Shown: piece by piece, positions 2,176-50,494 of the stretch | How positions within the stretch are numbered: the stretch's first letter is position 1 | How the letters are laid out: each line of letters begins with the position of its first letter | Assembly: GCA_013334765.1 (NCBI GenBank) | Contig: JAAXWW010000004.1 | Span: forward strand, 42,557 to 106,556 | DNA: 64,000 bases | From: Candidatus Moraniibacteriota bacterium | GTDB lineage: Bacteria; Patescibacteriota; Minisyncoccia; Moranbacterales; UBA2206 | Direction: 5' to 3' | Program-made: the position numbers and the translations under genes | The notes under the pieces: generated by a model | Seen by the model: only the letters and a program-made list of their open reading frames with translations | Database searches by the model: none | Told to the model about the DNA's origin: nothing

Positions 2176-3390
2176 TTATTCGTAACGGAGCGCTTCAATC
2201 GGACTCAGATTGGCGGCGCGGCGCGCCGGATAGAACCCGAAGATGATTCCGACTCCGGCAGAGACTCCGAAGGCCAGAAGCACCGAAGAAAGCGAGACTT
2301 GGGCGGTCAGGCTTATCAGTTTGGAAATCACCAACGATGCCAGCCAACCCAGAATGATTCCGATTCCGCCACCGAGAAAAGTGAGGATGACCGCCTCAGT
2401 CAGGAACTGGAGGTTGATATATATTTTCCTGATGCCGACCGCTTTCCTAAGCCCGATTTCGCGCGTTCTTTCCGTCACCGTAGTGAGCATCATGTTCATA
2501 ATCCCGATTCCTCCGACCAGGAGAGAAATCCCGGCAATGGAAGACAGCAGCATCGTGAATGTTCCGGTAATGCTTGAGGCAGTCGCTATGATATCGTTCT
2601 GATTCATCAAGCTGAAATCAGCCTGTGTCGAATCAGATATTTTATGACGGCGCAGAAGCAGTTCCGTTATCTGACTCTGCACGGTTGTCATATATTGCTG
2701 ATCAGCTGCCGCTACGCTTATATTGTTGACATATGAATTTCCCGACAAATAATGCTGGGCAGTCAGAAGCGGGACATACACGATGTCGTCCTGATTGTTG
2801 AATCCGGATCCCCCTTTGGCAACCGTGACCCCGATGACTTTGAAATCTATGTTGTTTATGCGGATAGTCTGTCCGACTGGATCGGCATCCGTCCCGAACA
2901 GATCCTCACTGGTCGTCGGCCCGATGACCGCGACCTTGGCAGAACTTTTCAGCTGCGAATCGCCGAAGAACGATCCCGATCCGATAGCGACATTCCTAGC
3001 CGCCAGATAGTCGGCATTAGTTCCGATTATCTGGGTATTGGTGTTGTTTCCCTTGGCTGTCACCTGGTAGCGTTTCGAAACCGATGGAGCGACCGCGCTT
3101 ATATTGGCAATTTCGCTTTTGATAGCATCAGCATCATCAGTAGTCAGCGTTTCGGAGCTTCCTCCTCCCTGGCTTATGCCTCCCACTCGTTGGGAACCGG
3201 GAGAGATGATGATGAGGTTGGATCCGATCGATTCTATATTCTTGGCAATCGAATTCTGGGCGCCCTGCCCAACAGCAACGAGCGCTATGACTGAGGCAAT
3301 CCCGATCACGATTCCAAGAATGGTGAGTCCTGATCTCACTTTGTTGCCGGCCAAAGACCAGACGGTCTCTTTGAACAAATCTCCTATCAT
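2176..3390 (-). CDS. ABC transporter permease, MacB/FtsX family (MacB periplasmic core + FtsX TM domain)
   Basis: 404 aa; N-terminal TM, large periplasmic domain, C-terminal FtsX-like 3-TM bundle; directly downstream of the ABC ATPase. Confidence 0.85.
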   Translation of the reverse strand: MIGDLFKETVWSLAGNKVRSGLTILGIVIGIASVIALVAVGQGAQNSIAKNIESIGSNLIIISPGSQRVGGISQGGGSSETLTTDDADAIKSEIANISAVAPSVSKRYQVTAKGNNTNTQIIGTNADYLAARNVAIGSGSFFGDSQLKSSAKVAVIGPTTSEDLFGTDADPVGQTIRINNIDFKVIGVTVAKGGSGFNNQDDIVYVPLLTAQHYLSGNSYVNNISVAAADQQYMTTVQSQITELLLRRHKISDSTQADFSLMNQNDIIATASSITGTFTMLLSSIAGISLLVGGIGIMNMMLTTVTERTREIGLRKAVGIRKIYINLQFLTEAVILTFLGGGIGIILGWLASLVISKLISLTAQVSLSSVLLAFGVSAGVGIIFGFYPARRAANLSPIEALRYE

Positions 3391-9789: not shown

Positions 9790-9826
9790 TCGCTGATTTT
9801 TGTATTTTTTTATTTTTACTTCTTTA

Positions 9827-11239
9827 TTATAGCTCTTCCCAGAGATCCATCAAATACTCGTTGCCAGTCGGGAAATACGGAGGAGGAGAATAAAGGAGGT
9901 TGTTGTCATAATGCAGGTTGCGGTTCGTGTATCCCCTTCCATCAGTATAAGCAAATCCGTATCTTTTGTTGCTGGCAATCGCTCCGAATACCGTAATCGT
10001 ATCCTTATGGTCGTCGCTACCGTAATCTTCCCTGCCCACCCTTCCGCTTTGCGCCAGAAGAGCAGCATCGATATGAAGATCAGTATCGCTGTTTTTTGCA
10101 ATCTCGATGTCCTTTTGCGAAACAACTCCTAAAACCGTGCTACCGTCATAGCTCCCATAGTTTATGTCATTGATAATATAGACATTGGCCTTGCTAGCGC
10201 TTCCGAGTCTTGCAGCGACAACACTGACCCTTTTGTCTCTGATATTTCCTTCCAGCCAGACATCCCCGTCAACAAAGATTATCCCATCATCGGGAATATC
10301 GAATGCTCTCCAGGAACCGACATATTCGCCTACGGAGGTGCCGCTGGAATTCTTCACGCTTATCTCGCTGAACGTTCCATTGGAATTGAGGATGATATAT
10401 TTTCCCCACGATTGGCCGTTCATATCGAAATAGCAAGCCGAAGCCGAGCATCCGTCCGTTCCGGCTTTCATTGCCTCTGTTTGCATGAGGCTCAAGTCGG
10501 CAGTCACGCCGGAGAAGTCCTTGTCCGGTATGGGATATGATTTCCCAGCCGAAAACACGTCGCTCCCCATATCGGTGTTGTATTCATTGCTCCAGCTCGT
10601 CCAAACACCCGGCCTTATCCCTTGCACATCAGGATCGCCGTCATAATAACTGGAAACAGCGCTATATACGGTATTGTGCGCCACGCCGTCGAAATGCACC
10701 CCGTTATTGGCAAATACCTTGCCGAAGACTTCGGTGCCGGATCCGAAACGGACGAAGTCATTGGAGAGCATTATATATTCGCTCCATGAAGGACGGCGAA
10801 GCCTTACCTGGATTATTTTTTTCGAATCAGGATACTTGTATGTCCACCCGGTCGATTTCACGATAACGATAGTCGATCCTTCTGCGGGCGGAGTGACTTC
10901 GATGCTGTATTTTCCTATGCCGGCCCCTGCCGGATCCCTGTATTCAGCCTCGTAGGCGCTGCCCACTCCGAAAGGATTCCCGCTTGTCCAGAATGTCTCT
11001 ATCTGCTGAGCGGTCTTGCCATTCGTCTGATGCGCCAAATACCAACGATAGAAACTGATTCCGGCCTCCGCAATCTGAAAGGATTCCTGTTTGGAGGAAT
11101 TATATGTCCCGTATCTTATCTGGGACACCACATATTCCATCATCGATACCAGGATGATGAGCGATATGCTCGTGATGATCAGCGCATAGACCAGCGCGTA
11201 TCCTTTTGTATCCTTTCTGATTTGGAGATTAGTATCCAT
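9827..11239 (-). CDS. PilX-like pilus-associated protein (PilX_N-type hydrophobic N-terminus + large globular domain)
   Basis: N-terminal hydrophobic helix followed by the ...QESFQIAEAGI motif characteristic of the PilX N-terminal domain; 470 aa. Confidence 0.55.
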   Translation of the reverse strand: MDTNLQIRKDTKGYALVYALIITSISLIILVSMMEYVVSQIRYGTYNSSKQESFQIAEAGISFYRWYLAHQTNGKTAQQIETFWTSGNPFGVGSAYEAEYRDPAGAGIGKYSIEVTPPAEGSTIVIVKSTGWTYKYPDSKKIIQVRLRRPSWSEYIMLSNDFVRFGSGTEVFGKVFANNGVHFDGVAHNTVYSAVSSYYDGDPDVQGIRPGVWTSWSNEYNTDMGSDVFSAGKSYPIPDKDFSGVTADLSLMQTEAMKAGTDGCSASACYFDMNGQSWGKYIILNSNGTFSEISVKNSSGTSVGEYVGSWRAFDIPDDGIIFVDGDVWLEGNIRDKRVSVVAARLGSASKANVYIINDINYGSYDGSTVLGVVSQKDIEIAKNSDTDLHIDAALLAQSGRVGREDYGSDDHKDTITVFGAIASNKRYGFAYTDGRGYTNRNLHYDNNLLYSPPPYFPTGNEYLMDLWEEL

Positions 11240-16303: not shown

Positions 16304-16669
16304 CTATTTGAGCGTTTCTTTTATCTTATTCGCTATATCCTCCATTTTGTAGTCCGACTTTACCAGATAAGTGGTTGCTCCCTTATCGAAAGCTTTCTGG
16401 ATGTCTTCCGGGCTCTCGAGATTGGTCAGCAGTATTATCGGGATGTTCTTGGTTTCAGGGTCCTTTTTCAGCTCATCCAAAACTTCATATCCGTCTTTCT
16501 TGGGAAGCACTATGTCAAGAAGGATCAGTGATGGCTTTTCTTTCTTAGCTATCCGTGTCCCTTCTTCCCCGTCGAAAGCACTGACGATCCTGTATCCTTC
16601 TTCTTTCAAAAATTCTCCCAACGATTGATTGAGAGCGGTTTCATCCTCTATGATGAGTATTTTTTGCAT
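16304..16669 (-). CDS. stand-alone response regulator receiver (CheY-like) protein
   Basis: 121 aa, REC domain (ILIIEDE...LLDIVLPKKDGYEVL...K). Confidence 0.85.
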   Translation of the reverse strand: MQKILIIEDETALNQSLGEFLKEEGYRIVSAFDGEEGTRIAKKEKPSLILLDIVLPKKDGYEVLDELKKDPETKNIPIILLTNLESPEDIQKAFDKGATTYLVKSDYKMEDIANKIKETLK

Positions 16670-16699
16670 AAGCTTTGGATTAATTCTTATGATGAAAAA

Positions 16700-17644
16700 T
16701 TATTCATGCCTTGCCGCGGGAAGGGAAAAAGAAAAAATCGTCCCTAATCCTTCGACTGAATCAAACTCTATATTCCCTCCGAGCTGTTCAATAACGTTTT
16801 TGGCGATATACAGACCAAGCCCGGTCCCTTCGGTCTGATATTTGACTATGTTATCGGAACGGAAAAATTTCTCGAAGATCCTCTTCTGCTGCTCCTTCGG
16901 GATTCCGACGCCGTTATCCTTGACGCTGAAAACGACCGACCCGTCTTTTTGCGAAACCTTCACCTCTATCTTCCCTTCATTGATCGTATATTTGGAAGCG
17001 TTCCCAAGAAGATTCTCAATAACCATCCTGATTTTTTCCGGATCTCCCAGCACCTTGGCAGATTTCCTGCTGGAGGAGAAAGCCAGTCCTATTCCCTTAG
17101 CTTTCAATATGGGAGCGAGGCTTTTGACCGCCTCTTCGGAAATGCGTCCGATATCGACCGAGACATGCCTCAGGATCAGCCTGTCCTGATCGATCCTAGC
17201 CACATCCAGAAGGTCGTTGACCAGCCTTGCCATCTTGCGGCTTTGTTCGGCAATGTTCTCGATATTGCTTATCTGCTTCTCAGTCAGGCCCTTCTTCATT
17301 TTAGTGAGCAGAAGCTCAGTCTCCCATCGGATGGCTGACAGCGGGGTGCGCAGCTGATGCGAAGCGACTGAAACGAATTCGCTCTTGGCTTTATTGAGAT
17401 TGGTTACCTGTTCCACTATCCCGACAATCACGTTGCCGATGATCAGGATAGTGATCGCAACCGCGGATTCCGCGATAACCAGCAGCTGAGGATCGTCATA
17501 GTTTTTGGACATATAATATGTCCCAGTCATGGCGATAGCAGCGACGACTCCCATCATGATGAAAAGGAATCCGGGAGTCTGCCAGACTTTTATTCCTAAA
17601 TCGCTCGCCTGCTTTTTCAGATTGAGATCGTTTATGAACTTCAT
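16700..17644 (-). CDS. sensor histidine kinase (2 TM + HisKA + HATPase_c); start set at MKF to avoid running into groEL
   Basis: H-box SHQLRTPLSAI, N/G1/F/G2 boxes (GNASKYT, DNGVGIP, GTGLGLYIAKN). Confidence 0.8.
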   Translation of the reverse strand: MKFINDLNLKKQASDLGIKVWQTPGFLFIMMGVVAAIAMTGTYYMSKNYDDPQLLVIAESAVAITILIIGNVIVGIVEQVTNLNKAKSEFVSVASHQLRTPLSAIRWETELLLTKMKKGLTEKQISNIENIAEQSRKMARLVNDLLDVARIDQDRLILRHVSVDIGRISEEAVKSLAPILKAKGIGLAFSSSRKSAKVLGDPEKIRMVIENLLGNASKYTINEGKIEVKVSQKDGSVVFSVKDNGVGIPKEQQKRIFEKFFRSDNIVKYQTEGTGLGLYIAKNVIEQLGGNIEFDSVEGLGTIFSFSLPAARHE

Positions 17645-20500: not shown

Positions 20501-23329
20501 CTAGAGATATTTCCCTGTCACGCTCCTTTTGCAGCTCTTGAGCCCTTTGGGCGTTCCTGCATAGACAAGTTCGCCGCCTTTTTCTCCTCCCTCGGGACCC
20601 AGATCGATCACCCAATCGGAGTTCTTGACCACGTCCAGGTTGTGTTCGACAACCAGAACCGTATTCCCTTTATCGACAAGCGCGTCCAGGACCAGAAGCA
20701 ACTTCTTCACGTCTTCGAAATGCAGCCCGATTGTCGGCTCGTCAAGGACATACAGCGTCTTTCCGGTTGAACGGCGCGCCAGCTCGGTCGCCAACTTGAT
20801 CCTCTGCGCTTCCCCGCCGCTCATATCAGTCGCGCTCTGGCCGAGCTTAAGATAGCCCAATCCAACCGATTCCAATGTTTCCAATTTCTCAGCAATGAGT
20901 TTCGAATTCTTGAAAAAAGAATGCGCATAAGAAACGCTCATGTCGAGAACATCGGCTATGTTGACTCCGCGATATTCTATTTCCAAAGTCTTCTGGTTGT
21001 ATCTCGATCCTCCGCAGCTCTCGCATTTGACATACATATCCGGCAAGAGATGCATCTCTATCTTCCTGTTTCCGTCGCCCTGGCAATTCTCGCACCGACC
21101 GCCTTTCATGTTGAAACTGAAACGGCTGGCATCATAGCCGCGCCTCTTCGCTTCCTCCATCTCTGAAAAAAGCTCGCGTATGAGGGAGAACACTCCCGTA
21201 TAGGTCGCTGCGTTCGATCTGGGCGTGCGTCCGATCGGAGACTGATTGATGCTTATCACTTTATCGATATTCGAAAGCCCCGTTATTTTCTTGTGACGCC
21301 CAGGATTATCTTTGGAACCGAAGAAATGCTTGGACAAAGCCTTGGAAAGAATATCCCTTACCAGAGTCGATTTTCCGGAACCGGAAACACCAGTCACCGA
21401 AATGAATTTACCAAGCGGAATCTCTACATCGATATTTTTGAGATTATGCTCGCTAGCAGAATGAATCTTGATGGATTTACCATTCCCCTTCCGGCATTTC
21501 GTCTTTTCCGAGACTTTCAATTTCCCGCTCAGATATTTTCCCGTAAGAGTTTTGGCTTTGATCATTTTGGCATAATCTCCCTCGAAAATAACCTCACCGC
21601 CTTCTTCTCCAGCGCCAGGCCCCATGTCAATGACCCAATCGGCACGCCTTATGATCTCCTCATCATGTTCGACCACGATCAAAGAATTTCCTGCTGCGCG
21701 CAATTTTTCCATCGTGTCGATCAGTTTTTCCGTATCGCGATTGTGCAACCCCATCGACGGTTCATCAAGGACATACGTAATTCCGGAAAGCTCCGACCCT
21801 ATCTGGGTTGCCAGACGGATCCTTTGCCCCTCTCCTCCGGAAATCGAATCCGCTGAACGGGAAAGCGACAGATAATCAAGCCCGACGTTTTTGAGCGCCA
21901 TGGCTTTAAGTCTCATTTCTTTCACGAGCGGAAGTACCATCTCTTTTTTCATTTTGCTCCAAGCCGCATTTTCCGCCTCCGTCAAAAACTCCAGGAAACC
22001 TGAAATCGGGAGACTGACAACCTCGTCGATTGATTTTCCTAAAACCAAAACGGAAAGAAATTCGTTTCGAAGCCGTTGGCCTTTGCAGATCGGGCACGGC
22101 TTCTCGATTATGTATTTTTCGATATCGCTTCTTGAATGATTGCCATTGGCATCTTCGTATCTTTTTTTCATTATCGGAATCACGCCGTCAAATGGGATAT
22201 CCGGATCATTCGATCCATAGAGAACAGCGTTCAGATTTTCACGGCTGATTTTATTGACGGGAGTGCCCAGCGAAAATCCGCATTTCTCCCCCAAAGTTCT
22301 CAGAATATTCCCCCCATTCCCGAGCATCGAAAACTTCCCTCCGGACTTGTTCCAGGAAAGGATAGCCCCTTCCGAAAGTGAAAGGTTCTTGTTCGGAATG
22401 ATGAGATCCTCGTCGATTTCCCTGATGACTCCGAGTCCGGAACAATGAGGACAAGCTCCTTCGTGATTATTGAAAGAGAAATGCCGCGGAGAGATTTCCG
22501 GAAGTTTGAAATCGCATTTCGAGCAGATAAAATCACGGTTATACTGTTTCCCCGCCTCTCCGCTTTTAGCCACCATCATCGTTCCTTTCCCGAGTTTGAA
22601 AGCAGTTTCGACCGAATCCAATATCCGCTCCTTATCCGGATTCTTTTCGTTGTGGATTATCCTGTCCACCACAATTTCCACCACATCAAGCGCATCCAAT
22701 TCTTCTTCATTACCCTGATATGCTTCATCGAAAGTCATTATCTTCCCTCCGATCCTGAGCCTCGCGTATCCAAGCTGAGAAACGCTTCTCAAAATCTCTC
22801 TCGCATTTTTTCCTTTCTCGCGAATGATAGCGATGATAACTAGCTGGGTCTTGTCAGGGAAAAAGAAAATCTCTTCCAAAACTTCCCGATTGGAAATCTT
22901 CTTCATGGGAATCTTGCAATTCGGACAGTGCGGCGTTCCGATCTTAGCGAACATGACACGGAGATAATCGTATATTTCCGTAAGAGTTCCGACAGTCGAA
23001 CGAGGCGAACGGCTCAAGCTTTTCTGATCGATGGAAATAGTCGGCGTCAGATTCTCGATCTTGTCCACATCCGGTTTCGATCCAGAATCCAAAAACTGCC
23101 GAGCATAGCTCGACATACCTTCAAGATATCTCCTATTGCCCTCCGCATAAATGGCATCGAAAGCGAGCGATGACTTCCCCGATCCGGAAAGCCCAGTGAT
23201 AACCACCATCTTGTCGCGCGGAATCTCGACGTTCACATTCTTGAGATTATTCACCCGCGCGCCCCTGACTATTATCTTATCCCTTTTCGTCTCGTTCTTC
23301 ATCTTCCCCCTGGTTTGATTCTGCGCCAT
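20501..23329 (-). CDS. uvrA: excinuclease ABC subunit A (UvrA), copy 1; start trimmed to [20 protein letters not shown]
   Basis: Two ABC ATPase modules with Walker [10 protein letters not shown] / GVSGSGKST, signatures LSGGEGQR / LSGGEAQR, zinc-finger Cys motifs. Confidence 0.9.
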
Positions 23330-23495
23330 TTTGGTAAGTGAGTTTAAAAAGCGAAAAACACGTTTACAGGTAGAAATTCTACAGCAGTTTTTGGGAAATG
23401 TCAAAGGTTCGCATGACATAATGAGAAATTGTAAAATGCAACAGAAAGCAAAGAAACATAAATATGCAATAAATACCTATGATTGAAAAGCTTGC

Positions 23496-23626
23496 CGTCC
23501 GAGAAGTTATTTTCAGAATCATTGACTGAGCTCTACACAAAAACCACTTGCTATAAAAAACCGACAAGCAAAACTTACACCCGCAAAAGTCGCAATAATG
23601 ATTCTGAAAATAACTTCTCGGACGGT
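23496..23626. repeat. 131-bp inverted-repeat element: 29-bp perfect terminal IRs flanking the conserved core (ATTGACTGAG ... AACTTACAC-N9-TCGCAATAA)
   Basis: IR ccgtccgagaagttattttcagaatcatt / aatgattctgaaaataacttctcggacgg; core shared with the 39278 and 42483 elements. Confidence 0.7.
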
Positions 23627-23646
23627 AGCAAACGCGCTCCGGTTTA

Positions 23647-24885
23647 TTATTCCAAAATCGCCCGACTCCGCAGTTTCCTATGATAAGTGATTGCGAAACG
23701 ATGCGCTTCATCGCGCATCTGTTCGATTATGTTTTCTGGAACCTCTGGCACATTACCGAAAGGATAAAGATCCAGCTTCTTCCTGGTCGGTCCTTTGGCA
23801 ACCGCCAAGAGAGGAATATCCGAACGAAGCGAACGCAAAACTCTCCTCGCCATATTAAGATGCCCCCTTCCGCCATCAAGAACAATGAGACTCGGCCGCT
23901 GCCAGCTGTTTTTCAGCCTCCTTCTCAAAACTTCTTCCATCGCCGCAACATCATTTATTCCCTCTATGCTCTTTATCCTGAACTTCCTATATTCATTCTT
24001 GTTCGGTTCCAGCATCCCTTTCGAATTGTCGAAAACCACCATCGAACCAACCATGTGGCTGCCGGAAATATTGGAGATATCATAGGCTTCGATCCGCATC
24101 GGTTCCGGTGACTCAGAATGAGAAGCCTCTTCATCTGCCTTCGATATCATCGCGATATCCCGAATATGCTTCAAGGCGAAAATCTTATTGCGAGCACCTG
24201 CCGCACATTCGAAATCCTCAGTCTTGGAACATTCCTCCATATCTTTCTGAAGCTCGCGGATGAGGCTCGATTTCTTTCCGCGGAGTATCATCTCGATCCC
24301 TCGGATATTCTTGAGGTAGTCGCGCCGGGATATCGCCCCGTCATACGGACCAGGGCAAAGCCCGATCTGATAATCCAGACATCCTTTCTCGCTATGTTCG
24401 GAACGGGAATGATACGGGAATATTTTGCGAAGGATCTTGAGAGCGGTGTCGATCTGGCGACGCGAAGTATACGGTCCGTATATTTTGGAATAGTTTTTCT
24501 TCGCTTCACTATCGCTCCCTAAATCCGTTTTTCTCATCACCAAGAATTTCGGAAATTCCTCCTTTGTCACAACAACATATACGAAGGACTTATCATCCTT
24601 CCCCATAGCGTTATACTTCGGTTGAAGATCCTTGATCAGTCCCTGCTCCAAAATATACGCCTCCAGGACCGTATCGGTTTTCCTGATTTCCAAGTCCGAT
24701 ACCTCATCGATAAAAAGTTCGATCATCCTGGCATAACCAGCTTTGCTTTGGAAATAGGAAGACACCCGGTCTTTGAGCGATGTCGCTTTCCCGACATACA
24801 AAACCTCACTGGCGTCATTTTTGAAAATATACACACCAGGAGAAGATGGAAGGGATCTTAATTTTCGTTCTAGTTTTGTTGACAT
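23647..24885 (-). CDS. uvrC: excinuclease ABC subunit C (UvrC), short form lacking the C-terminal (HhH)2 domain; start at MSTKLERK
   Basis: GIY-YIG N-terminus (GVYIFKNDASEVLYVGKATSLKDR), UvrBC-interaction region, RNase H-like endonuclease domain (RIEAYDISN, DGGRGH, RDEAHRFA) ending ~10 aa after HRFA. Confidence 0.8.
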   Translation of the reverse strand: MSTKLERKLRSLPSSPGVYIFKNDASEVLYVGKATSLKDRVSSYFQSKAGYARMIELFIDEVSDLEIRKTDTVLEAYILEQGLIKDLQPKYNAMGKDDKSFVYVVVTKEEFPKFLVMRKTDLGSDSEAKKNYSKIYGPYTSRRQIDTALKILRKIFPYHSRSEHSEKGCLDYQIGLCPGPYDGAISRRDYLKNIRGIEMILRGKKSSLIRELQKDMEECSKTEDFECAAGARNKIFALKHIRDIAMISKADEEASHSESPEPMRIEAYDISNISGSHMVGSMVVFDNSKGMLEPNKNEYRKFRIKSIEGINDVAAMEEVLRRRLKNSWQRPSLIVLDGGRGHLNMARRVLRSLRSDIPLLAVAKGPTRKKLDLYPFGNVPEVPENIIEQMRDEAHRFAITYHRKLRSRAILE

Positions 24886-24953
24886 TTTTATGAATATAGA
24901 GTAATCTATTGGGAAACAATAGCTCATTAACAACTTAACATATAGGTAGGATC

Positions 24954-25205
24954 ATGCCACAGCCAGATGCTTTGATTATTTTCGGAGCCACTATTTCATT
25001 CCAAGGAAAATTGGCTCCTCCGGTTGCTACAAATAGGTGCGTAACAAGACCCGTGCACATAGCCCTCCAAAAAGGCAGAGATGGAACAGTTATTGTTCCC
25101 AGATTGAACAGGAGCATGTTGCCTGAAGAACTGAAAAAGATGCTGAGCATACCTGGATCAGTATTGAAGTTCTCTAAAATACAGATTATTACCAATTGCA
25201 ATTAA
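24954..25205 (+). CDS. hypothetical small protein (83 aa), weak support
   Basis: ORF in the divergent intergenic region; weak SD (AGGTAGGA). Confidence 0.25.
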   Translation: MPQPDALIIFGATISFQGKLAPPVATNRCVTRPVHIALQKGRDGTVIVPRLNRSMLPEELKKMLSIPGSVLKFSKIQIITNCN

Positions 25206-25225
25206 CCTTAGACAGGGAGGAATAA

Positions 25226-25447
25226 ATGAAAGCTGAGTTAGTGGTAGGTGATCACGTGACCTGGGATGAAGAAGCAATCGCGGGAAACCGCGGCATGCAG
25301 CAGTGCTGCAAAGAAATATCTGGCCCATTTACTATCCATTCTGTAACATCCAGACCGAGACTGAATGACATTGTTTTCATAAAAACATCGGATGGGAGCA
25401 TTGTCGATCGACCGTTTGATGCAAGCCTGCTCAAATTGGCCGTATAG
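25226..25447 (+). CDS. hypothetical small protein (73 aa)
   Basis: Strong SD GGGAGG 6 nt upstream; followed by a clean intrinsic terminator. Confidence 0.5.
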   Translation: MKAELVVGDHVTWDEEAIAGNRGMQQCCKEISGPFTIHSVTSRPRLNDIVFIKTSDGSIVDRPFDASLLKLAV

Positions 25448-25467
25448 AATCCACTGCTTAGGCCCCC

Positions 25468-25505
25468 GGCGGGAGGCGCATAACTGCACCTCCCGCCTTT
25501 TTTTA
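25468..25505 (+). terminator. Rho-independent terminator
   Basis: ggcgggagg-cgcataactgca-cctcccgcc followed by TTTTTTT. Confidence 0.7.
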
Positions 25506-25529
25506 TTTCAAAAAAACATTTTCTAAAAA

Positions 25530-28478
25530 TCATTTCTTTTTCAAAACATCCCTCAAATACTTCGCCGTCTCGCTCACTTCATGATATTTCGCCACTTCTT
25601 CGGGCGTTCCGGAAACAACCACTTTCCCACCACCCTCTCCGCCTTCCGGACCGAGATCGATTATCCAATCGGCCGTCTTGATGACATCCAGGTTATGTTC
25701 GATGACCACCACTGAATTTCCGGCATCCACCAAACGGCTGAGCACATCCAGAAGCTTCTTAATATCTTCGAAATGAAGCCCGGTAGTCGGTTCGTCCAGG
25801 ATATACAACGTATCCCCGGTTCCCCGCCTGGCAAGCTCGGTCGCCAATTTGATCCTCTGCGCTTCCCCTCCGGAAACCGTAGTCGCGCTCTGTCCCAATT
25901 GGATATATCCCAGACCCACGTCTTCAAGCGTTTTCAATTTAGAATATATCTCTGGAAAGTTCTTGAAGAATTCAGCCGCATCCGTGACGGTCATATCCAA
26001 AACATCGGAAACATTCTTTTCCTTGTATTTCACCTGCAGCGTCTCGCTGTTATATCTTTTTCCATGGCATACGTCGCAAGGAAGATAGACGTCCGGCATG
26101 AACTGCATTTCTATCTTATTGAATCCTTCCCCTTGGCAGTTATCGCATCTTCCGCCTTTCACATTGAAAGAGAATCTTCCCGGACCGTACCCTTTGGCTT
26201 TGGCATCGCGCGTCGCGGCGAAAAGCTCGCGGATCGGAGTGAACACTCCCGTATAGGTCGCAGGATTGGATCTCGGCGTTCTCCCGATGGGAGACTGATC
26301 GATCATGATCACTTTGTCTATATTCTCCACTCCGACGATTTCCTTGTGTTTCCCGGGCTTGTCCAGGCTCCTCATTATTTTCGAAGACAATCCTTTATAG
26401 AGAACGTCTTCCACTAACGTAGACTTCCCAGAACCCGATACCCCGGTCACGCAGGTAAAGACCTTGAGCGGAAATTCCACAGTGATGCTTTTGAGATTGT
26501 TCTCGGTAGCCTGCCTGACTATGACGGATTTCTTGTTCTTCATGGCGCGCCTGAAAGACGGGACGGATATTTCCAGATCGCCTCGAAGATATTTGGCGGT
26601 AAGCGATTTTCCTGATCTGATCACTTCTTGAGGCGTGCCGTGGGCCACGATCTCCCCTCCATGCTTGCCGGCACCCGGCCCGAAATCGACCAGATAATCC
26701 GCCGCTCGCATAGTCTCCTCGTCATGTTCCACCACGATCAAAGTGTTTCCGATATCGCGAAGGGAAAGAAGCGTGGAAAGCAATTTGGTATTATCGCGGG
26801 GATGGAGCCCGATCGACGGCTCGTCCAGGATATACAGAACGCCTGTAAGCTGCGAACCGATCTGAGACGCCAGGCGGATCCTCTGCGCTTCCCCGCCCGC
26901 CAATGTGGCGGCGCTGCGATGAAGCGTCAGATAGCCCAGTCCCACGTTTTCCAAAAATCCAAGCCTGTTCCAGATTTCTTTCAATATCCTTCCGGCAATC
27001 ATTTTCTCCCTATCCGAAAGGGAAAGCTCGCAGAAAAACGCCAGCGATTCCTTTATGCTTGTCTTTGAAACATCATAAATATTCCTATCCCTGAGGGTGA
27101 CCAATAGCGTCTCCTTCTTATATCTGGCTCCATGACAGGTCGAACAAGGATTCTGCGACATGTATTTCTCGATGTCAGTCCTCACGGCATCGGAATCCGT
27201 TTTCAGATACCTGTCCTGAAGATAGCCGACCACTCCCCGCCAATGCATGTTATATTTCCAGCTCGATCCGGTTTTCGATCGGAGCGTCACCGGAATATCG
27301 TCGGCCTCCTCTTCCGGAATCATATCGGTCGCGTCCGGCGAACCGAACATGAGCGTGTTGAAATCATCGTCGGACAGATCGCGAAGACGGATATTATCCC
27401 TTATGTGATAGTGATTGGTGACCGCTCGAAGGACCGTTCCCTGCCAATTGTTCTTCTTATAGCTCCACGGCATCAAACCGCCCTCGGCAATAGTCTTGTT
27501 CTTGTCCGGCGCCACCAGATCAGGATCGATTTCCTTTTTGAGTCCCAATCCTTCGCAATCAGGACAAGCCCCATACGGGCTGTTGAAAGAGAAAAGCCTC
27601 GGTTCCAATTCGGGGAATTCTATCTCATGCACCGGACAGGAAAAATTCTGATTGAAAATCATTTCCGCATCTGGATTCTCATCGCCCGCTTCAGTTTTTT
27701 TCGGTTTCGATTTCTTGCTATCGGATTTGATCTTGACTATCCCATGGGAAAGATTGAGCGCTTTTTCCACGTCCTCGAATATCCTGGCGATGTTCCCATC
27801 GCTCACTTCGACATCGTCGATAACGATGTCCACATCGTGCTTCTTATATCTCGCCAGCTTCACCTTCTCGCCCATCTTCGCGCTGAGCTCGTATCGCTTG
27901 CCATTGACATACGCATAGGAAAAACCGCGCTTATGCATATCCTCAAGAAGAGTCGAATATTCCCCCTTGCGGCCGCGGACCACCGGAGACAGGATCTCTA
28001 TCTTCGGACATTCAGCGCTCTTTATGGCAGCCTTCCCTCCTTTGAGGCATGCTTCAAGAATCCTATCCACGATCTCATCGACTGACAGTTTCACTATTTC
28101 GCGCCCGCATATCGGACAGTGCGCCACTCCGATCTTGGCATAAAGAAGACGCAGATAGTCATGGATTTCCGTTACCGTCCCGACAGTTGATCGAGGATTC
28201 CTCGAAGCCGATTTCTGATCGATGGAAATAGCCGGCGACAGTCCCTCGATAAGGTCCACGTCCGGTTTCTCCATCTTTCCCAAAAACTGCCGCGCATAAC
28301 TGGAAAGGCTTTCCAGATAGCGCCGTTGCCCTTCAGCGAATATGGTATCGAAAGCCAAAGTCGACTTCCCTGATCCGGAGAGGCCTGTGAAGATTATGAA
28401 TTTATTGCGAGGAAGATCGAGATCGATATTCTTGAGATTATGTTCCCTCGCCCCTCTTATGATTATTTTATCCTGCAT
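25530..28478 (-). CDS. uvrA: excinuclease ABC subunit A (UvrA), copy 2 (full length, 982 aa)
   Basis: MQDKIIIRGAREHNLKNI N-terminus; both ABC modules and signature motifs present; ~50% identical to copy 1 by eye. Confidence 0.9.
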   Translation of the reverse strand: MQDKIIIRGAREHNLKNIDLDLPRNKFIIFTGLSGSGKSTLAFDTIFAEGQRRYLESLSSYARQFLGKMEKPDVDLIEGLSPAISIDQKSASRNPRSTVGTVTEIHDYLRLLYAKIGVAHCPICGREIVKLSVDEIVDRILEACLKGGKAAIKSAECPKIEILSPVVRGRKGEYSTLLEDMHKRGFSYAYVNGKRYELSAKMGEKVKLARYKKHDVDIVIDDVEVSDGNIARIFEDVEKALNLSHGIVKIKSDSKKSKPKKTEAGDENPDAEMIFNQNFSCPVHEIEFPELEPRLFSFNSPYGACPDCEGLGLKKEIDPDLVAPDKNKTIAEGGLMPWSYKKNNWQGTVLRAVTNHYHIRDNIRLRDLSDDDFNTLMFGSPDATDMIPEEEADDIPVTLRSKTGSSWKYNMHWRGVVGYLQDRYLKTDSDAVRTDIEKYMSQNPCSTCHGARYKKETLLVTLRDRNIYDVSKTSIKESLAFFCELSLSDREKMIAGRILKEIWNRLGFLENVGLGYLTLHRSAATLAGGEAQRIRLASQIGSQLTGVLYILDEPSIGLHPRDNTKLLSTLLSLRDIGNTLIVVEHDEETMRAADYLVDFGPGAGKHGGEIVAHGTPQEVIRSGKSLTAKYLRGDLEISVPSFRRAMKNKKSVIVRQATENNLKSITVEFPLKVFTCVTGVSGSGKSTLVEDVLYKGLSSKIMRSLDKPGKHKEIVGVENIDKVIMIDQSPIGRTPRSNPATYTGVFTPIRELFAATRDAKAKGYGPGRFSFNVKGGRCDNCQGEGFNKIEMQFMPDVYLPCDVCHGKRYNSETLQVKYKEKNVSDVLDMTVTDAAEFFKNFPEIYSKLKTLEDVGLGYIQLGQSATTVSGGEAQRIKLATELARRGTGDTLYILDEPTTGLHFEDIKKLLDVLSRLVDAGNSVVVIEHNLDVIKTADWIIDLGPEGGEGGGKVVVSGTPEEVAKYHEVSETAKYLRDVLKKK

Positions 28479-28598
28479 GTTTTGAAATTGTTTTTATGGT
28501 ATGACTTACCCAAATATCACTAAAAAGACCACTTCACAGTCTACTATGAAAGCAGGATTTTATCAATATGCCACAGTTATTTTTATATTTAAAAATGC

Positions 28599-28627
28599 TT
28601 GACAAATAATAATTTGCGAGCTATATT
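28599..28627 (+). promoter_or_regulatory. sigma70-type promoter firing toward (antisense to) the 3' end of the DUF3800-like gene
   Basis: TTGACA-17 nt-TATATT (28599-28604 / 28622-28627). Confidence 0.5.
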
Positions 28628-28633
28628 CATATC

Positions 28634-28678
28634 AGAAGAGGCTGGGGAGCGAGCGTGATGCCGCGAGCCAGTTTTTTT
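28634..28678 (+). ncRNA. putative ~45-nt small RNA ending in a U7 tract, convergent with the DUF3800-like gene 3' end
   Basis: Lies between the predicted TSS (~28634) and TTTTTTT at 28672-28678; hairpin is weak, so tentative. Confidence 0.25.
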
Positions 28679-28682
28679 GTTT

Positions 28683-29489
28683 TTAGGGTAAAATAAGAAA
28701 TGGCTTGACTTCCTCAAAGAATTTCATTTTGCTTTTCTTCGCATCCTTTGGTATTTTAAATAACTTTTTATTAATAAGTTTTAGCATTCTTTCCTCGTAA
28801 TCTCCCGATTCGAATTTCTTCTTTCTTTTTTGAAAATATTTACATTTTGCAATATAAGCAAAAAGATCGGCAATCTGTTCTTCTATGTCGTGATTGTTTT
28901 TGGTAACGAATGATATGGCCGTTAACACTTCTTTGACTTTCTCATGGCTAACATTTATTTCTGGAATACCGCCCGACAAATAATAACTAAGGGCCTTATG
29001 GAAATAGAAATCCTTTTCTCCAGTAGCTGATTCGACGATTATCTTTCCCTTGGAGTCATTTGTCAAAAGAACAAGAAGAAAGTTCCTTATTAGCCATCTG
29101 CATGTTTCGTTGTATATTTTGACATCATTCCATGCCTTCTTTTTTGCTATATTCTTATCGACAACAACAAAAAACAATTTGAATTTTGAACATAGAAGAA
29201 ATTTTTCCAAATCATCTAAAAATTCTCCGCGTATTTTTTTATCTTTCAATAAGCTGAAATCATTTTCTCTCCTCCATATCTCTCTCGAATGAAAAACCAC
29301 GTCGGTTCTTCCCCAATATTTGAATTTTATCTGATCTGACCAGGTTTTTATCTTGCTCCTTTCGCTATCATCGACTGAACACCCAGAGAGAATATATAAC
29401 TCGGAATCAAGATGCTTCGGGCTGGCAGTTCCCAGTTCATCGATAAATAATTTGTATGATTTTTGTTCTTTTTCTTCCATATATTTCAC
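28683..29489 (-). CDS. DUF3800-like protein (268 aa), AT-rich, second gene of the lexA operon
   Basis: N-terminal YKLFIDELGT (DESG-like) motif and C-terminal EEQIADLFAYI motif as in DUF3800; ~30% GC versus ~46% for the flanks; 3-nt gap after lexA. Confidence 0.6.
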   Translation of the reverse strand: MKYMEEKEQKSYKLFIDELGTASPKHLDSELYILSGCSVDDSERSKIKTWSDQIKFKYWGRTDVVFHSREIWRRENDFSLLKDKKIRGEFLDDLEKFLLCSKFKLFFVVVDKNIAKKKAWNDVKIYNETCRWLIRNFLLVLLTNDSKGKIIVESATGEKDFYFHKALSYYLSGGIPEINVSHEKVKEVLTAISFVTKNNHDIEEQIADLFAYIAKCKYFQKRKKKFESGDYEERMLKLINKKLFKIPKDAKKSKMKFFEEVKPFLILP

Positions 29490-29492
29490 TTC

Positions 29493-30161
29493 CTATAAGC
29501 TCACGTACGCAACGGGCAGCACTTTCTTGAACACTCCGGCAATCAGGATCGAATCGGACTGGTGGATGAAGATCGGCTGATGGAAAGAGTTGGTCGATTT
29601 CGGAAACAGCCCGATGATATCGTCGCTCACCTTCTTGAATCTTTTTATGGTCGCCATGCCGTTTATGACAGCGACCACGATCTTGCCTTCCAACCCGTTC
29701 AGGGAATCATAGCTGTATTTTTCAAAGATGACATAGTCTCCGTCGCGGATCCCTTCCTTGTCCATCGAATCGCCGAGCGCCTTCACTGCAAAAAGGTTGG
29801 CGCTTTCCTCGCCGCGGAAGAGGGCTTTTGAAATCTGAAGGAAACCGTCCACATTGTCCTGAGCATACGCCAACGCCTCTCCGCAAGAAGCCAACCCATA
29901 GACCGGCAAAGAGAAGATATTCTTGAGATCGGCATAGTTCTCGTTTTCCACCGGATATATCTTGCGATCCGAATCGCGCCTGATAAGTTCTTTCTTTTCC
30001 AGCGATTCGATGACCTGCACGATCGATTTCAAACTTTCGTTCGCTCCGATGGAAGCGAGATACTTATGCAGCTTATAGCTGGTCGGGTTTTCCTTTTTCT
30101 GATCGATGAATTCCCGTATCGATTCCAGCATGTTGTTCTGCTTGGCAGTCAGCTTTTGCAT
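29493..30161 (-). CDS. lexA: LexA repressor (wHTH + S24 peptidase)
   Basis: N-terminal LexA DNA-binding domain; S24 motifs ALGDSMDKEGI (Ser nucleophile) and TIKRF (Lys general base). Confidence 0.85.
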   Translation of the reverse strand: MQKLTAKQNNMLESIREFIDQKKENPTSYKLHKYLASIGANESLKSIVQVIESLEKKELIRRDSDRKIYPVENENYADLKNIFSLPVYGLASCGEALAYAQDNVDGFLQISKALFRGEESANLFAVKALGDSMDKEGIRDGDYVIFEKYSYDSLNGLEGKIVVAVINGMATIKRFKKVSDDIIGLFPKSTNSFHQPIFIHQSDSILIAGVFKKVLPVAYVSL

Positions 30162-30183
30162 AGTTTTGTTTTTTTATTGCTTA

Positions 30184-30220
30184 TGATGATATATTATCAC
30201 TTTATCATTATCACTGTCAA
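30184..30220 (-). promoter_or_regulatory. lexA promoter (TTGACA-16-GATAAT) with candidate operator: near-palindrome TGATAATATATCATCA overlapping the -10 and direct repeats GTGATAAT x2
   Basis: Minus strand: TTGACAgtgataatgataaagtGATAATatatcatca...ATG. Confidence 0.4.
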
Positions 30221-30233
30221 ATGTTCTCCGGCT

Positions 30234-39277: not shown

Positions 39278-39418
39278 GCGGAACGATAGCATGAGCCTTT
39301 TGAAATTATTGACTGAGCGGTTTATAGAAATCTGTTTATTTTACGGTTCAGCCACAAGAAAACTTACACTCATGCATGTCGCAATAAGAATTTCAAAAGG
39401 CTCATGCTATCGTTCCGC
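39278..39418. repeat. 141-bp inverted-repeat element (30-bp perfect IRs) with conserved core ATTGACTGAG ... AACTTACAC-N9-TCGCAATAAG
   Basis: IR gcggaacgatagcatgagccttttgaaatt / its reverse complement at 39389-39418. Confidence 0.7.
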
Positions 39419-42442: not shown

Positions 42443-42468
42443 AAAAAAACCGCGCAAGCGGTTTTTTA
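42443..42468 (+). terminator. Rho-independent terminator after rnj
   Basis: aaccgc-gcaa-gcggtt followed by TTTTTT. Confidence 0.6.
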
Positions 42469-42482
42469 ATTTTATCGAACTG

Positions 42483-42623
42483 CAGAAGGCTGAGATATCT
42501 GTTTTTGAAATTCTTATTGCGACATGCATGGGTGTAAGTTTTTCTTGCAGCTAAATTACACGAAGAGAGATTCCTGTAAAGCACTCAGTCAATAATTTCA
42601 AAAACAGATATCCCAGCCTTCTG
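42483..42623. repeat. 141-bp inverted-repeat element, same family as 39278..39418 and 23496..23626 but in inverted orientation
   Basis: 30-bp IRs (1 mismatch); core ttcttattgcgacatgcatgggtgtaagtt matches the other copies. Confidence 0.7.
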
Positions 42624-42694
42624 CCTCAAGCCAAAAATTGCCTAAAAACGGCTTTCGGGATAGAATGAAAATACTTTAAAGCTAGAAAAATACC

Positions 42695-43801
42695 ATGAAA
42701 AAACGCATATTCTCAGGCATCCAGCCGTCAGGAAACCTCCATATCGGAAACTATCTCGGAGCCATCAAGAACTGGGTCGCCCTTCAAGACGAATACGATT
42801 CCATTTTCTGCGTGGTCGACATGCACGCCATCACCGTCCCGCAAGACCCGGAACAGCTAAGACAAAAAACGATCGAGATCGCCAAAATATATCTGGCCTC
42901 CGGAATTGACCCGAAGAAGTGTTCGATTTTCATCCAATCACAGATTAGCGAACATGCGGAACTGATGTGGATTTTAAATACAATCTCCAGGATGTCTGAT
43001 TTATTCAGAATGACCCAATTCAAGGATAAGTCAGGAGTAAAAACAGATTTAGAAACTATTGAGAACGTGCTATCTATAAGCGCTGCCTCCAATGAAAAGC
43101 AATATATAGGAACCAATAATGAAAATAAGGTTTCTGTGGATGCATACGTCAGAAACTATATTGATAAAATAAATAAGGTAGAAGTTGGACTCTTCAGTTA
43201 CCCTGTCCTCATGGCTGCCGACATAATTTTATATGGAACAGAAATAGTCCCTGTCGGCGAAGACCAGAAACAGCACGTCGAGCTGGCGCGCGATTTGGCC
43301 AAGCGATTCAATCACCGCTTCGGAGACACGTTCATCATTCCGAAATCCCACATCAAAGAAGAAGGCATGCGCATCATGGGACTCGATACTCCGGAAAAGA
43401 AGATGTCCAAATCCGCTCCGTCTGAATATAACCGCATCGACCTTCTGGATGATCCCGAAATGGCCAAGAAGAAAATCATGAAAGCCGTCACCGACAGCGG
43501 ATCTGAAATCATATATACGGACGAAAAACCAGCCATCAAGAATCTGATCGATATATATTCAGCACTTGGAAATATTTCTTCGAAAGAGATTGAGACTAAG
43601 TACAAAGGCAAAGGCTACGGCGATTTCAAAAAGGACCTCGCAGGAGTCGTTGCCGCATTCCTCACTGATTTCCAAAAGAAATACAACGCTATTTCCGATG
43701 ATGAAGTCCTCGCCATCCTCCACGAAGGAGCCGAAAAAGTCAGGCCGATTGCCAAGAAGAAGCTGGATGAAGTGAAGGGAAAAGTGGGGTTCATAATATA
43801 A
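42695..43801 (+). CDS. trpS: tryptophan--tRNA ligase, carrying a ~47-aa AT-rich insertion (nt ~43043-43184)
   Basis: HIGN and KMSKS motifs; RMTQFKD ... GLFSYPVLMAADI separated by an unusually long AT-rich segment. Confidence 0.85.
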   Translation: MKKRIFSGIQPSGNLHIGNYLGAIKNWVALQDEYDSIFCVVDMHAITVPQDPEQLRQKTIEIAKIYLASGIDPKKCSIFIQSQISEHAELMWILNTISRMSDLFRMTQFKDKSGVKTDLETIENVLSISAASNEKQYIGTNNENKVSVDAYVRNYIDKINKVEVGLFSYPVLMAADIILYGTEIVPVGEDQKQHVELARDLAKRFNHRFGDTFIIPKSHIKEEGMRIMGLDTPEKKMSKSAPSEYNRIDLLDDPEMAKKKIMKAVTDSGSEIIYTDEKPAIKNLIDIYSALGNISSKEIETKYKGKGYGDFKKDLAGVVAAFLTDFQKKYNAISDDEVLAILHEGAEKVRPIAKKKLDEVKGKVGFII

Positions 43802-43860: not shown

Positions 43861-44016
43861 GCAGCATCGCGTGTTTTTGCGCCATTGAACGAAAGCTGCA
43901 AATTACTGAAGTGAGATGATAAAAAACACAGATTGTGAAACAATCGTTTGTTTTTTGAATCGAACGTAAGATAATTTGCCTTGAGTGAAATAATGCGCAA
44001 AAACACGCGATGCTGC
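43861..44016. repeat. 156-bp element flanked by 22-bp perfect inverted repeats (gcagcatcgcgtgtttttgcgc)
   Basis: IR-L 43861-43882, IR-R 43995-44016; internal small palindrome gattgtgaaacaatc. Confidence 0.6.
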
Positions 44017-49397: not shown

Positions 49398-49478
49398 CGT
49401 TTCCTTGCGAACATATTGTTTTTGCGGCTTCCGTGCGAAGCGAAAGGCAAGCAAAAATGATATGTTCGCAAGGAAACG
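49398..49478. repeat. 81-bp hairpin element (28-bp IR arms, conserved loop GGCTTCCGTG..GCGAAGCGAAAGGCAAG) inserted between ssb and rpsR
   Basis: Arms cgtttccttgcgaacatattgtttttgc / gcaaaaatgatatgttcgcaaggaaacg; paralog at 50361..50447. Confidence 0.65.
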
Positions 49479-50336: not shown

Positions 50337-50360
50337 TAGACACGAAGATCGACACATCAA

Positions 50361-50447
50361 GTTTTCTCTCAAGCATAATCATTTTGCGGCTTCCGTGTGA
50401 GCGAAGCGAACGAAAGGCAAGTAAAATGATTATGCTTGAGAGAAAAC
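50361..50447. repeat. 87-bp hairpin element, paralog of 49398..49478, between efp and smpB
   Basis: Outer arm sequences differ but still pair (compensatory changes); inner arm + loop conserved (ATTTTGCGGCTTCCGTGTGAGCGAAGCGAACGAAAGGCAAGTAAAATGA). Confidence 0.65.
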
Positions 50448-50494
50448 TGGTCAAATAGAACCGCCCCGCTCCCTGTTTCTTTATTTTCCAATTT

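Follow-up and report, generated by a model that had tools for sequence, protein, structure and literature searches.

Dispersed hairpin elements with a conserved loop-proximal block and free outer arms in a Patescibacteria genome

The BIME/RIP elements of enterobacteria consist of inverted REP units that flank a conserved linker bound by IHF. REPINs, REP doublets that RAYT transposases mobilize, are long hairpins of two inverted arms with co-evolving pairing that are dispersed in intergenic DNA; their arms are conserved and family-specific, a RAYT gene is present in the genome and the spacer is less constrained. The attC sites are imperfect palindromes of 57-141 bp with free stem sequence, only one strand's hairpin is active, and the enzyme reads the fold together with a few unpaired bases. 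In chloroplast non-coding DNA there are small, hairpin-associated inversions, in which the loop flips between close relatives and the stem is kept. MITEs, which include the Correia elements of Neisseria, ERIC and QMITE2 of Coxiella, are small, non-coding, intergenic and AT-rich, with inverted repeats of ~25-30 bp (PMC10969869). Transcribed MITEs form stable stem-loops, and Correia hairpins are cut by RNase III; they differ in presence or absence between relatives and often lie in 3' UTRs (PMC10969869). Their terminal repeats, which stay the same from copy to copy, correspond to an IS, and fresh insertions carry direct target duplications (PMC10969869).

Here we describe a family of hairpin elements, Family 1, found in a 64,000-nt stretch of DNA (the window), in whose positions the Family 1 coordinates are given. 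The organism is a Candidatus Moranbacteria MAG: the TrpS protein encoded there is 100% identical to one of such a MAG, and all its close homologues come from Moranbacteria or Patescibacteria. The CPR/Patescibacteria have tiny, streamlined, uncultivated genomes, and to our knowledge almost nothing is known about their non-coding DNA. We favor, with evenly balanced confidence, the hypothesis that Family 1 is a palindromic DNA repeat akin to BIME/RIP, ERIC or MITE elements, restricted to one clade and equipped with a conserved module that a protein would recognize.

Anatomy and pairing of the Family 1 elements

Family 1 elements are non-coding and ~135 bp long (range ~131-143 bp). The four window copies (Table 1) have stems of 29-34 bp, each of different sequence, around a loop of about 61-75 nt that in every copy contains CTTACAC-N9-TCGCAATA. 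The initial annotation had listed three complete copies and a core-only remnant at 36697-36722. The three copies stand, with the coordinates and gene placements given for them (uvrC-like/uvrA, PGI/PMI and RNase J/trpS), and the remnant is in fact a fourth full copy, 36618-36750. The terminal inverted repeats had been said always to pair perfectly, which is true of the arms that pair at 29/29 and 30/30 positions and slightly overstated for the 34-nt arms with one mismatch and those with 27/30.

Table 1. Family 1 copies in the window and the parts of the copy at 39278-39418
Feature	Position	Strand	Remarks
Family 1 copy, subfamily 1a (flagged copy)	39278-39418	+	arms 30/30 complementary; covariance model 122 bits
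Family 1 copy, subfamily 1a	23495-23625	+	arms 29/29 complementary; covariance model 136 bits
Family 1 copy, subfamily 1b	36618-36750	+	30-nt arms, 27/30 Watson-Crick; covariance model 126 bits
Family 1 copy, subfamily 1a	42482-42624	core on -	34-nt arms, one mismatch; covariance model 138 bits
5' arm GCGGAACGATAGCATGAGCCTTTTGAAATT	39278-39307	+	outer ~20 nt copy-specific
5' loop motif ATTGACTGAG (subfamily 1a)	39308-39317	+	
3' block AAAACTTACAC-N9-TCGCAATAAG	39359-39388	+	adjoins 3' arm
3' arm	39389-39418	+	perfect complement of 39278-39307

In the copy at 39278-39418, an interior of 81 nt begins with ATTGACTGAG and ends with AAAACTTACAC-TCATGCATG-TCGCAATAAG, and the inner segment CTTTTGAAATT of the 5' arm is common to subfamily 1a; subfamily 1b has CTCATG in place of the 5' loop motif. 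The 3' block is the most conserved part of the family. Its 25 nt, AACTTACAC-N9-TCGCAATA, are asymmetric and abut the 3' arm, and the N9 spacing is constant in all nine copies known. The conserved module of Family 1 consists of a 9-16-bp inner inverted repeat, the 5' loop motif and the 25-nt block. The inner 9-16 bp of the arms are common within subfamilies, and the outer 15-20 bp are different in every copy, a stem extension that is free in sequence and stays complementary on both sides. The sequences TTTTGAAATT / AATTTCAAAA, which had been placed at the ends of two copies, do occur in two copies, where they form the inner, loop-proximal arm ends.

All three arm mismatches in the copy at 36618-36750 are G.U on the + strand, and an RNA fold of that strand therefore pairs 30/30 positions (-52 kcal/mol), as against an interrupted fold on the - strand (-45 kcal/mol). 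The single arm mismatch of 42482-42624 is likewise G.U on the core-sense strand. Counting independent stem mismatches on the core-sense strand, we find six G.U, one C.A and one G.A, and one of the G.U cases is an A-U/G.U polymorphism between two samples of the sister lineage B described below. This bias (6/7 transition mismatches; one-sided p ~0.06) is suggestive of a single folding strand, and RNA would fit equally.

The stem covariation signature proposed in the initial annotation is real and highly significant. Across seven copies, 96.1% of helix 1 cells are paired and 25 of 30 pairs show changes on both sides, a level that 0 of 500 shuffles reached; slid registers are paired at only 31-45%. 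RNAalifold on the four window copies finds 23 of 37 pairs changed on both sides and a main helix without broken pairs. Folding z-scores of the window copies on the core-sense strand range from -8.4 to -11.8. The covariation among the seven copies is confined to the closing helix, and RNAalifold predicts no pairs in the loops of eight copies. The window has four matches to CTTACAC-N9-TCGCAATA against 0.08 expected, with none of 100 shuffles giving four or more. An unfiltered covariance model built from the four copies recovers only these four in the window (122-138 bits), and the next matches, at 34 bits or less, are other long hairpins. An independent Logan assembly of the same sample has identical sequence for three Family 1 copies, which rules out an assembly artefact there. 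Given these shuffle controls, the identical independent assembly and the orthologous copies in other samples, we regard chance similarity or assembly artefact as negligible explanations of the family.

Distribution and locus comparisons among sister lineages

Sister lineages were recovered by way of homologues of the flanking proteins. Lineage A is the window organism (sample SRR11449211; loci L001, L096, L104 and L105), lineage B comes from JGI 3300027796 (L092 and L098) and lineage C from SRR34018711 (L097 and L099). Amino-acid identities among the three are 93/87/86% for PGI and 84-86% for NuoF, and 77% for TrpS between A and B, the only pair comparable for that protein. The TrpS proteins of A (42695-43801) and B (L098 5354-6511) have near-identical ends and a wholly divergent middle of ~60 residues, in which they differ in length by 17 residues, in contrast to the 93% identity of PGI.

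The motif recurs on another contig of genome A and in the two sister lineages, and the Logan contigs for genome A added ~24 kb of new sequence with one decayed copy. Among the sequences searched, Family 1 copies are confined to A, B and C, and a mismatch-tolerant scan for the block in 203 kb of clade sequence matched only at the nine known copies. In GTDB (185,579 species genomes) the 17-base core gave 13 matches, all single and ascribed to chance, several of them clearly within genes, for example rplB, and none with flanking inverted repeats. The same core gave 48 chance matches in IMG/VR, none of which passed the covariance model, and 28 matches in JGI metagenomes, of which two are real and represent one locus in two samples. 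BLAST searches of phage and plasmid collections returned no Family 1 match. No Rfam family matched the elements at gathering thresholds, and permissive E-values brought up only generic hairpin or miRNA-precursor models, far below threshold. Family 1 is absent from relatives D (PGI 77%) and E (PGI 75%), which have the same SBP-PGI-rnj-trpS gene order (SBP, oligopeptide-binding protein), and from the L015 (trpS 80%) and L017 (trpS 73%) lineages, each compared at the rnj-trpS end only. A distant relative (PGI 75%) encodes an RVT_1 reverse transcriptase (L101 10727-12073) a few kb from the syntenic block, and L101 has no Family 1 element near that gene.

The intergenic region between nuoF and hydA holds the element in all three lineages. 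In B and C it is a full subfamily-1b copy, antisense to the operon, that reaches from 20 nt past the nuoF stop to 30 nt short of the next start codon. The element is also there in A, where its arms are no longer complementary. Between lineages, identity is 37-68% in the flanks, 73-79% in the loop centre and 88-96% in the 3' block (25/26 for A versus B), and the arms are 90-97% identical between B and C and 69-76% between A and either of them. Because the block exceeds the flanks in identity, we conclude that the element, and above all its 25-nt block, is under purifying selection in place. In A the block persists without a paired stem. The arms of B and C have changed less than the loop, a pattern that suggests selection for pairing and not neutral templated correction.

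The other two loci vary in occupancy or orientation. Between the SBP and PGI genes the element is present in A only; B and C have a 134-145-nt spacer there, followed by the same PGI promoter (TTTACT-17-TAATAT). The more distant relatives D and E are empty, and Family 1 thus shows presence/absence differences of the kind known for MITEs. Insertion into a pre-existing palindrome was considered and rejected, as the empty SBP-PGI site of B and C contains none. Between rnj and trpS, both A and B carry a subfamily-1a copy that lies between a conserved rnj terminator and the trpS promoter, with the core on opposite strands: covariance scores are 138 bits on the - strand and 47 on the + strand in the window, and 98 bits on the + strand and 44 on the - strand in B (L098). 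The flanking terminator and promoter are mostly conserved, and the whole alignment is 81% identical. With one copy reversed, identity is 32/33 in the inner arms plus junction, 23/28 in the 3' block, 27/47 in the loop centre and 13/36 in the outer arms. These outer arms, random-like yet paired, fit either independent insertion or replacement at a favored site or templated correction. The copy in B has a degenerate block (CTTGCAC, GCCGCGATAA) and 34-bp arms that are 97% complementary, with the sole mismatch at the loop junction. Since A retains a block without a stem at nuoF-hydA and B a stem with a decaying block at rnj-trpS, the upkeep of stem and block is uncoupled. The rnj-trpS site is empty in the L015 relative (80% identity). 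The look for empty sites in relatives thus found them at SBP-PGI in B and C and at rnj-trpS in L015; such absent copies could also be deletions. In the L017 lineage (TrpS 73%), the same spacer holds an unrelated hairpin with 30-nt arms that are 80% complementary (9794-9908), and the rnj-trpS spacer looks like a site favored by hairpins from more than one family.

Long hairpin elements of several families occur in the window at about one per 8 kb. In addition to Family 1 there are four further long hairpins in the window, and these other families of the same build also vary between A and B. The hairpin at 43861-44016 (ortholog L098 6575-6729) has 22-bp perfect arms and a 112-nt loop and lies between the convergent trpS and phosphomannomutase genes; between A and B its loop is ~96% identical, and four stem transitions are all compensated. 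It has no Rfam match and resembles a gene for a conserved non-coding RNA, or else a further hairpin element with a function. A second family is represented at 49398-49478 and 50360-50448, in the ssb/rpsR and efp/smpB spacers and in the same direction as the genes, by 26-28-bp arms that differ and a common loop GCGGCTTCCGTG...GAAAGGCAAG, in detail GCGGCTTCCGTG(..)GAAGCGAA(..)AAGGCAAG; the two stem mismatches of 49398-49478 are both G.U on the + strand. The hairpin at 35304-35444 has 28-bp perfect arms (TGTCATTCCCGCGAAGGCGGGAATCCAG), each self-palindromic, and an 85-nt loop. In lineage B, the PGI-rnj spacer contains an extra ~150-nt inverted-repeat element (L098, about 3080-3200; arms TGTCATCTCGAGCG / CGCTCGGGATGACA) that is absent in A, and these two elements may form a third mobile hairpin family. 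Logan contig L001 ends at 35417, in the right arm of 35304-35444, and at 50407, inside the loop of 50360-50448; the breaks may come from the way the assembler treats inverted repeats, or from a population in which both loop orientations occur. Elsewhere in genome A (L096), a small PD-(D/E)XK gene (PF13366; 14987-15373) lies between two NiFe-hydrogenase subunit genes, and an AT-rich imperfect palindrome with 48-nt arms (16654-16765) follows the hydrogenase large-subunit gene.

Gene context and candidate functions

Neighbors of Family 1 in the window are uvrA, a uvrC-like gene, manC, the SBP gene, a bifunctional PGI/PMI gene, rnj (RNase J) and trpS. The copy at 39278-39418 lies between the SBP gene (stop 39242) and the PGI/PMI gene (start 39526) and runs in the direction of both. 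That at 23495-23625 begins 22 nt past the uvrC-like stop codon, upstream of the uvrA promoter, and is antisense to both genes. The copy at 36618-36750 occupies the divergent spacer between manC and a holin-like/secG/SBP operon and has the direction of that downstream operon, and the copy at 42482-42624 has the rnj terminator (42444-42467) on one side and the trpS promoter (42638-42666) on the other. This last copy and the nuoF-hydA copies are antisense to their neighbor genes. Orientation relative to genes is accordingly mixed, with two copies along the adjacent or downstream gene, three antisense and one site flipped, and the elements occupy the gaps from a stop codon or terminator to the next promoter. 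The initial annotation suggested that the elements could modulate such neighbors; uvrA, pgi and trpS are each served by a sigma-70-like promoter that lies close by but outside the element.

The window contains a DNA-repair gene cluster (20501-34784) with two UvrA paralogues (20501-23419 and 25530-28478), a uvrC-like ORF that is only 428 aa long and has two short, unassigned ORFs behind it (24935-25533), genes for a DUF3800 protein (28683-29489) and a LexA-like S24 peptidase (29493-30161), and UvrB (32790-34784). The longest uvrA ORF (20501-23419) probably extends ~45 codons too far upstream: its match to the UvrA profile sets in only at residue 45-48, and the 5' extension contains, at 23376-23404 on the - strand, a near-consensus promoter, TTGACA-17-TAGAAT (11/12). 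A LexA/SOS box, an idea suggested by the uvr neighbors, was rejected because the block lacks palindromic symmetry and the majority of copies do not lie near repair genes.

The copies share no transcription signals. We found no sequence conservation outside the arms among the copies compared, and a scan revealed no promoter- or terminator-like site inside the elements. The test for intrinsic terminators found the rnj terminator beside the element and none within, with no T run after the arms. The loops contain -35-like hexamers (TTGACT, TTGCGA) without a -10 at 16-18 nt, and the middle of the loop repeatedly shows an A/T-rich hexamer that resembles a -10 and has no -35 to go with it; a loop promoter was rejected as unsupported. 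A small peptide was likewise rejected, since on direct reading the frames differ between copies. A promoter-like site, TTCGCA-18-TAAAAT, does lie 58 nt upstream of the copy at 23495, on the sense strand.

These observations bear on the possibility, which we consider doubtful but appreciable, that Family 1 is a hairpin RNA family of small RNAs or cis-acting mRNA elements. Its ~30-bp helix would then be an RNase III processing or stability stem, and the single-stranded block AACUUACAC-N9-UCGCAAUA would function as a protein-binding or base-pairing site. The very strong helix covariation with tolerated G.U, the folding z-scores of -8 to -12, the six G.U against one C.A on the core-sense strand, including the within-species A-U/G.U polymorphism, and the upstream promoter-like site all agree with such a role, as do the conservation of the whole nuoF-hydA element above its flanks, the 90-97% identity of its arms between B and C and a neighboring hairpin (43861-44016) that behaves like a conserved RNA gene. 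However, neither within the element nor around it is a promoter or terminator conserved, the orientation is antisense to both neighbors at three of five loci, and nuoF-hydA has no room for a promoter. One site is inverted between A and B yet maintained, and the 3' block is kept in either transcription orientation and without the stem. Furthermore, RNAalifold finds no loop pairs, Rfam offers no relative beyond sub-threshold generic miRNA-precursor-like matches, and the G.U bias reaches only p ~0.06. The missing loop structure, Rfam relative and common signals, together with an orientation that is independent of neighbor genes, weaken the initial suggestion of a structured RNA closed by a long helix, which gains something from mismatches that are mostly G.U; because of this wobble bias and the strong helix constraint, an RNA role retains a sizeable minority of the probability. 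A hammerhead-like core (CUGANGA) was rejected, since it does not fit and is missing from subfamily 1b.

The block is conserved in either orientation and without the stem, the loop is unstructured and transcription signals are missing; together, these findings suggest that the module is read as DNA or as a folded single strand that arises independently of the neighbor genes, and they argue against a cis-acting mRNA element. One form of DNA-level function, which we think unlikely, is a domesticated host site, with the block as an operator or architectural-protein site in a cruciform-prone palindrome that serves nucleoid organization or insulation, like the IHF-binding RIP/BIME. Conservation of the block in place in three lineages regardless of orientation and stem, its constant N9 spacing in nine copies and the terminator-to-promoter placement would suit such a site. 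Less compatible with it are the variation among copies in how far from the nearest promoter, and on which side of it, the block lies, the non-palindromic sequence of the block, the lack of a known candidate binding protein and the absence of the family from slightly more distant relatives with the same gene order. This possibility overlaps with the palindromic-repeat hypothesis and differs from it only in the beneficiary.

The opposite core orientations of A and B at rnj-trpS, with identical inner repeats, and the conservation of inner arms within subfamilies could also be accommodated by an inverton, an on/off switch in which the 61-75-bp loop enclosed by the inverted repeats is turned around by a site-specific recombinase. 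We consider this very unlikely. The loops are without a promoter, the neighbor genes have conserved promoters of their own outside the element, and no recombinase is encoded in the window. A segment of 61-75 bp is also very short for recombinase synapsis. Additionally, the Logan assembly is continuous through three Family 1 copies and broken at two other hairpins, and that continuity argues against mixed orientations in this sample.

Of the two initial proposals, that of a Correia/MITE-like mobile repeat with a conserved interior is the better fit, and it holds up in part. Consistent with it are the conserved interior, the presence/absence differences, the inverted orthologous copy, the terminator-promoter site and the restriction to one small clade; the elements are not canonical, however, in that their termini vary, target-site duplications are missing, a cognate transposase did not turn up in the sequence examined and divergence is deep. 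The search for target-site duplications came out negative, with no direct repeat at the borders of any copy read. Such duplications fade with age (PMC10969869), and their absence is thus weak evidence against a MITE. Among the 67 window ORFs, NCBIfam and Pfam searches identified no transposase, integrase, HUH enzyme, recombinase or reverse transcriptase, and the called genes of L096 and L105 include no transposase or related IS; the mobility-gene search covered ~88 kb of the roughly 1-Mb genome A. The Family 1 copies found are deeply diverged, with no near-identical pair among them, and within the same 88 kb no outer arm has a second copy within five mismatches. Two origins for the arms were tried and rejected: three 20-nt outer arms have no exact IMG/VR match that would point to a spacer-like source, and no convincing similarity to orthologous flanks indicates copying from flanking DNA. 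TIGR arrays were set aside as tandem, unlike the dispersed single elements of Family 1.

Measured against known classes, Family 1 lacks at least one defining feature of each of MITEs, REPINs, attC sites, Rfam families, intrinsic terminators and structured RNAs. The conserved terminal repeats of MITEs are missing, the outer 15-20 bp being different in all copies; the conserved arms of REP/REPIN are missing too, and the genome A sequence searched encodes no Y1 transposase. The R''/R' core sites of attC (RYYYAAC ... GTTRRRY) are absent, the borders instead reading GCGGAACG...CGTTCCGC, CCGTCCG...CGGACGG and the like, and the neighbors of the elements are housekeeping genes, not cassettes. Of the features of a generic structured RNA, covarying pairs within the loop and common promoter or terminator signals are lacking.

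The dispersed copies, the narrow clade, the presence/absence differences, the flip and the coexistence of similar families place Family 1 among the bacterial palindromic repeats, and its departure from the rules of MITEs and REPs lies in its free termini and fixed interior. We give roughly even weight to the conclusion that Family 1 is of the same general kind as BIME/RIP, ERIC, REPIN and MITE and acts at the DNA level. Several findings count against a DNA repeat, namely the lack of target-site duplications, of a mobility gene in 67 ORFs and of near-identical copies, the variable termini, atypical for a MITE or REP, the purifying selection on the block in place, which is unexpected for purely selfish DNA, and the G.U-favoring mismatches on the core-sense strand (6/7 transition mismatches).

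As a palindromic DNA repeat, Family 1 could work as follows, with the function and partner of the block being what we infer. The 25-nt block would be the recognition site of a trans-acting DNA-binding protein, either a mobilizing or recombining enzyme that reads the folded single strand, in the manner known for attC and for the ends of IS200/IS605, or a host factor comparable to IHF on RIP elements. Pairing of the stem would be preserved by the need for an active hairpin or cruciform, and/or through arm-to-arm templated correction (quasipalindrome template switching), and loop inversion would result from recombination between the arms. A read-through transcript would contain a ~30-bp duplex and would be expected to be cut by RNase III; this cut would be a side effect that could insulate neighbor genes.

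A further reading of Family 1 and of the other hairpin families in these genomes, which we judge improbable, is that of a structure-specified element in which a protein reads the loop-proximal module on one folded strand of DNA or RNA and acts ~30 bp away. Such an element could be mobile DNA of a new, hairpin-borne kind in CPR bacteria, or else an RNA resembling a pre-miRNA, with a variable duplex that is processed to small RNAs. This reading deserves mention because the outer arms are near-random (13/36) at an apparently orthologous site and the G.U mismatches are strand-biased; action at a fixed distance would leave the outer stem free to renew.

Relation to known palindromic repeats

Family 1 inverts the usual rule for bacterial repeats in that its interior is conserved and its ends are free. 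In a CPR genome, it provides a 25-nt block on which purifying selection has acted in place in three species. Should proteins bind this block, it would mark a new, clade-specific DNA- or RNA-binding activity, and if the elements are mobile, they would exemplify mobilization that is structure-read, not sequence-read, outside integrons. Such hairpins also interrupt assemblies, and the annotation of CPR MAGs can confuse them with RNA genes or terminators.

MITEs resemble Family 1 in size, intergenic site, inverted repeats and presence/absence differences; in Family 1, however, the termini vary, conservation is higher in the interior than at the ends and the copies are of old age. REPINs share with it the long hairpin of two inverted arms, the co-evolving pairing and the dispersal in intergenic DNA, whereas the arms of Family 1 vary, its spacer holds the conserved motif and no RAYT occurs in the sequence searched. 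The inversions of chloroplast DNA are paralleled by the flip at rnj-trpS between A and B, but they are single-locus structures, and Family 1 is dispersed and carries a conserved motif.

The nearest analogies appear to be RIP/BIME, with a protein site between the arms, and attC, with a fold and unpaired bases that are read. Strand-biased wobble, conserved unpaired bases and independence of transcription recall attC; in Family 1 the conserved bases adjoin the loop, not the stem base, and no integrase is found nearby. BIME/RIP (RIB) elements are likewise intergenic, ~100-150 bp long and non-coding, with inverted arms around a conserved asymmetric motif, and they too occur in both orientations between transcription units. 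Family 1 is from another phylum, has no sequence similarity to them and has a partner protein that is only putative, and whereas the arms of a BIME, the REP units, are conserved, those of Family 1 are free in their outer part and common only in the inner 9-16 bp.
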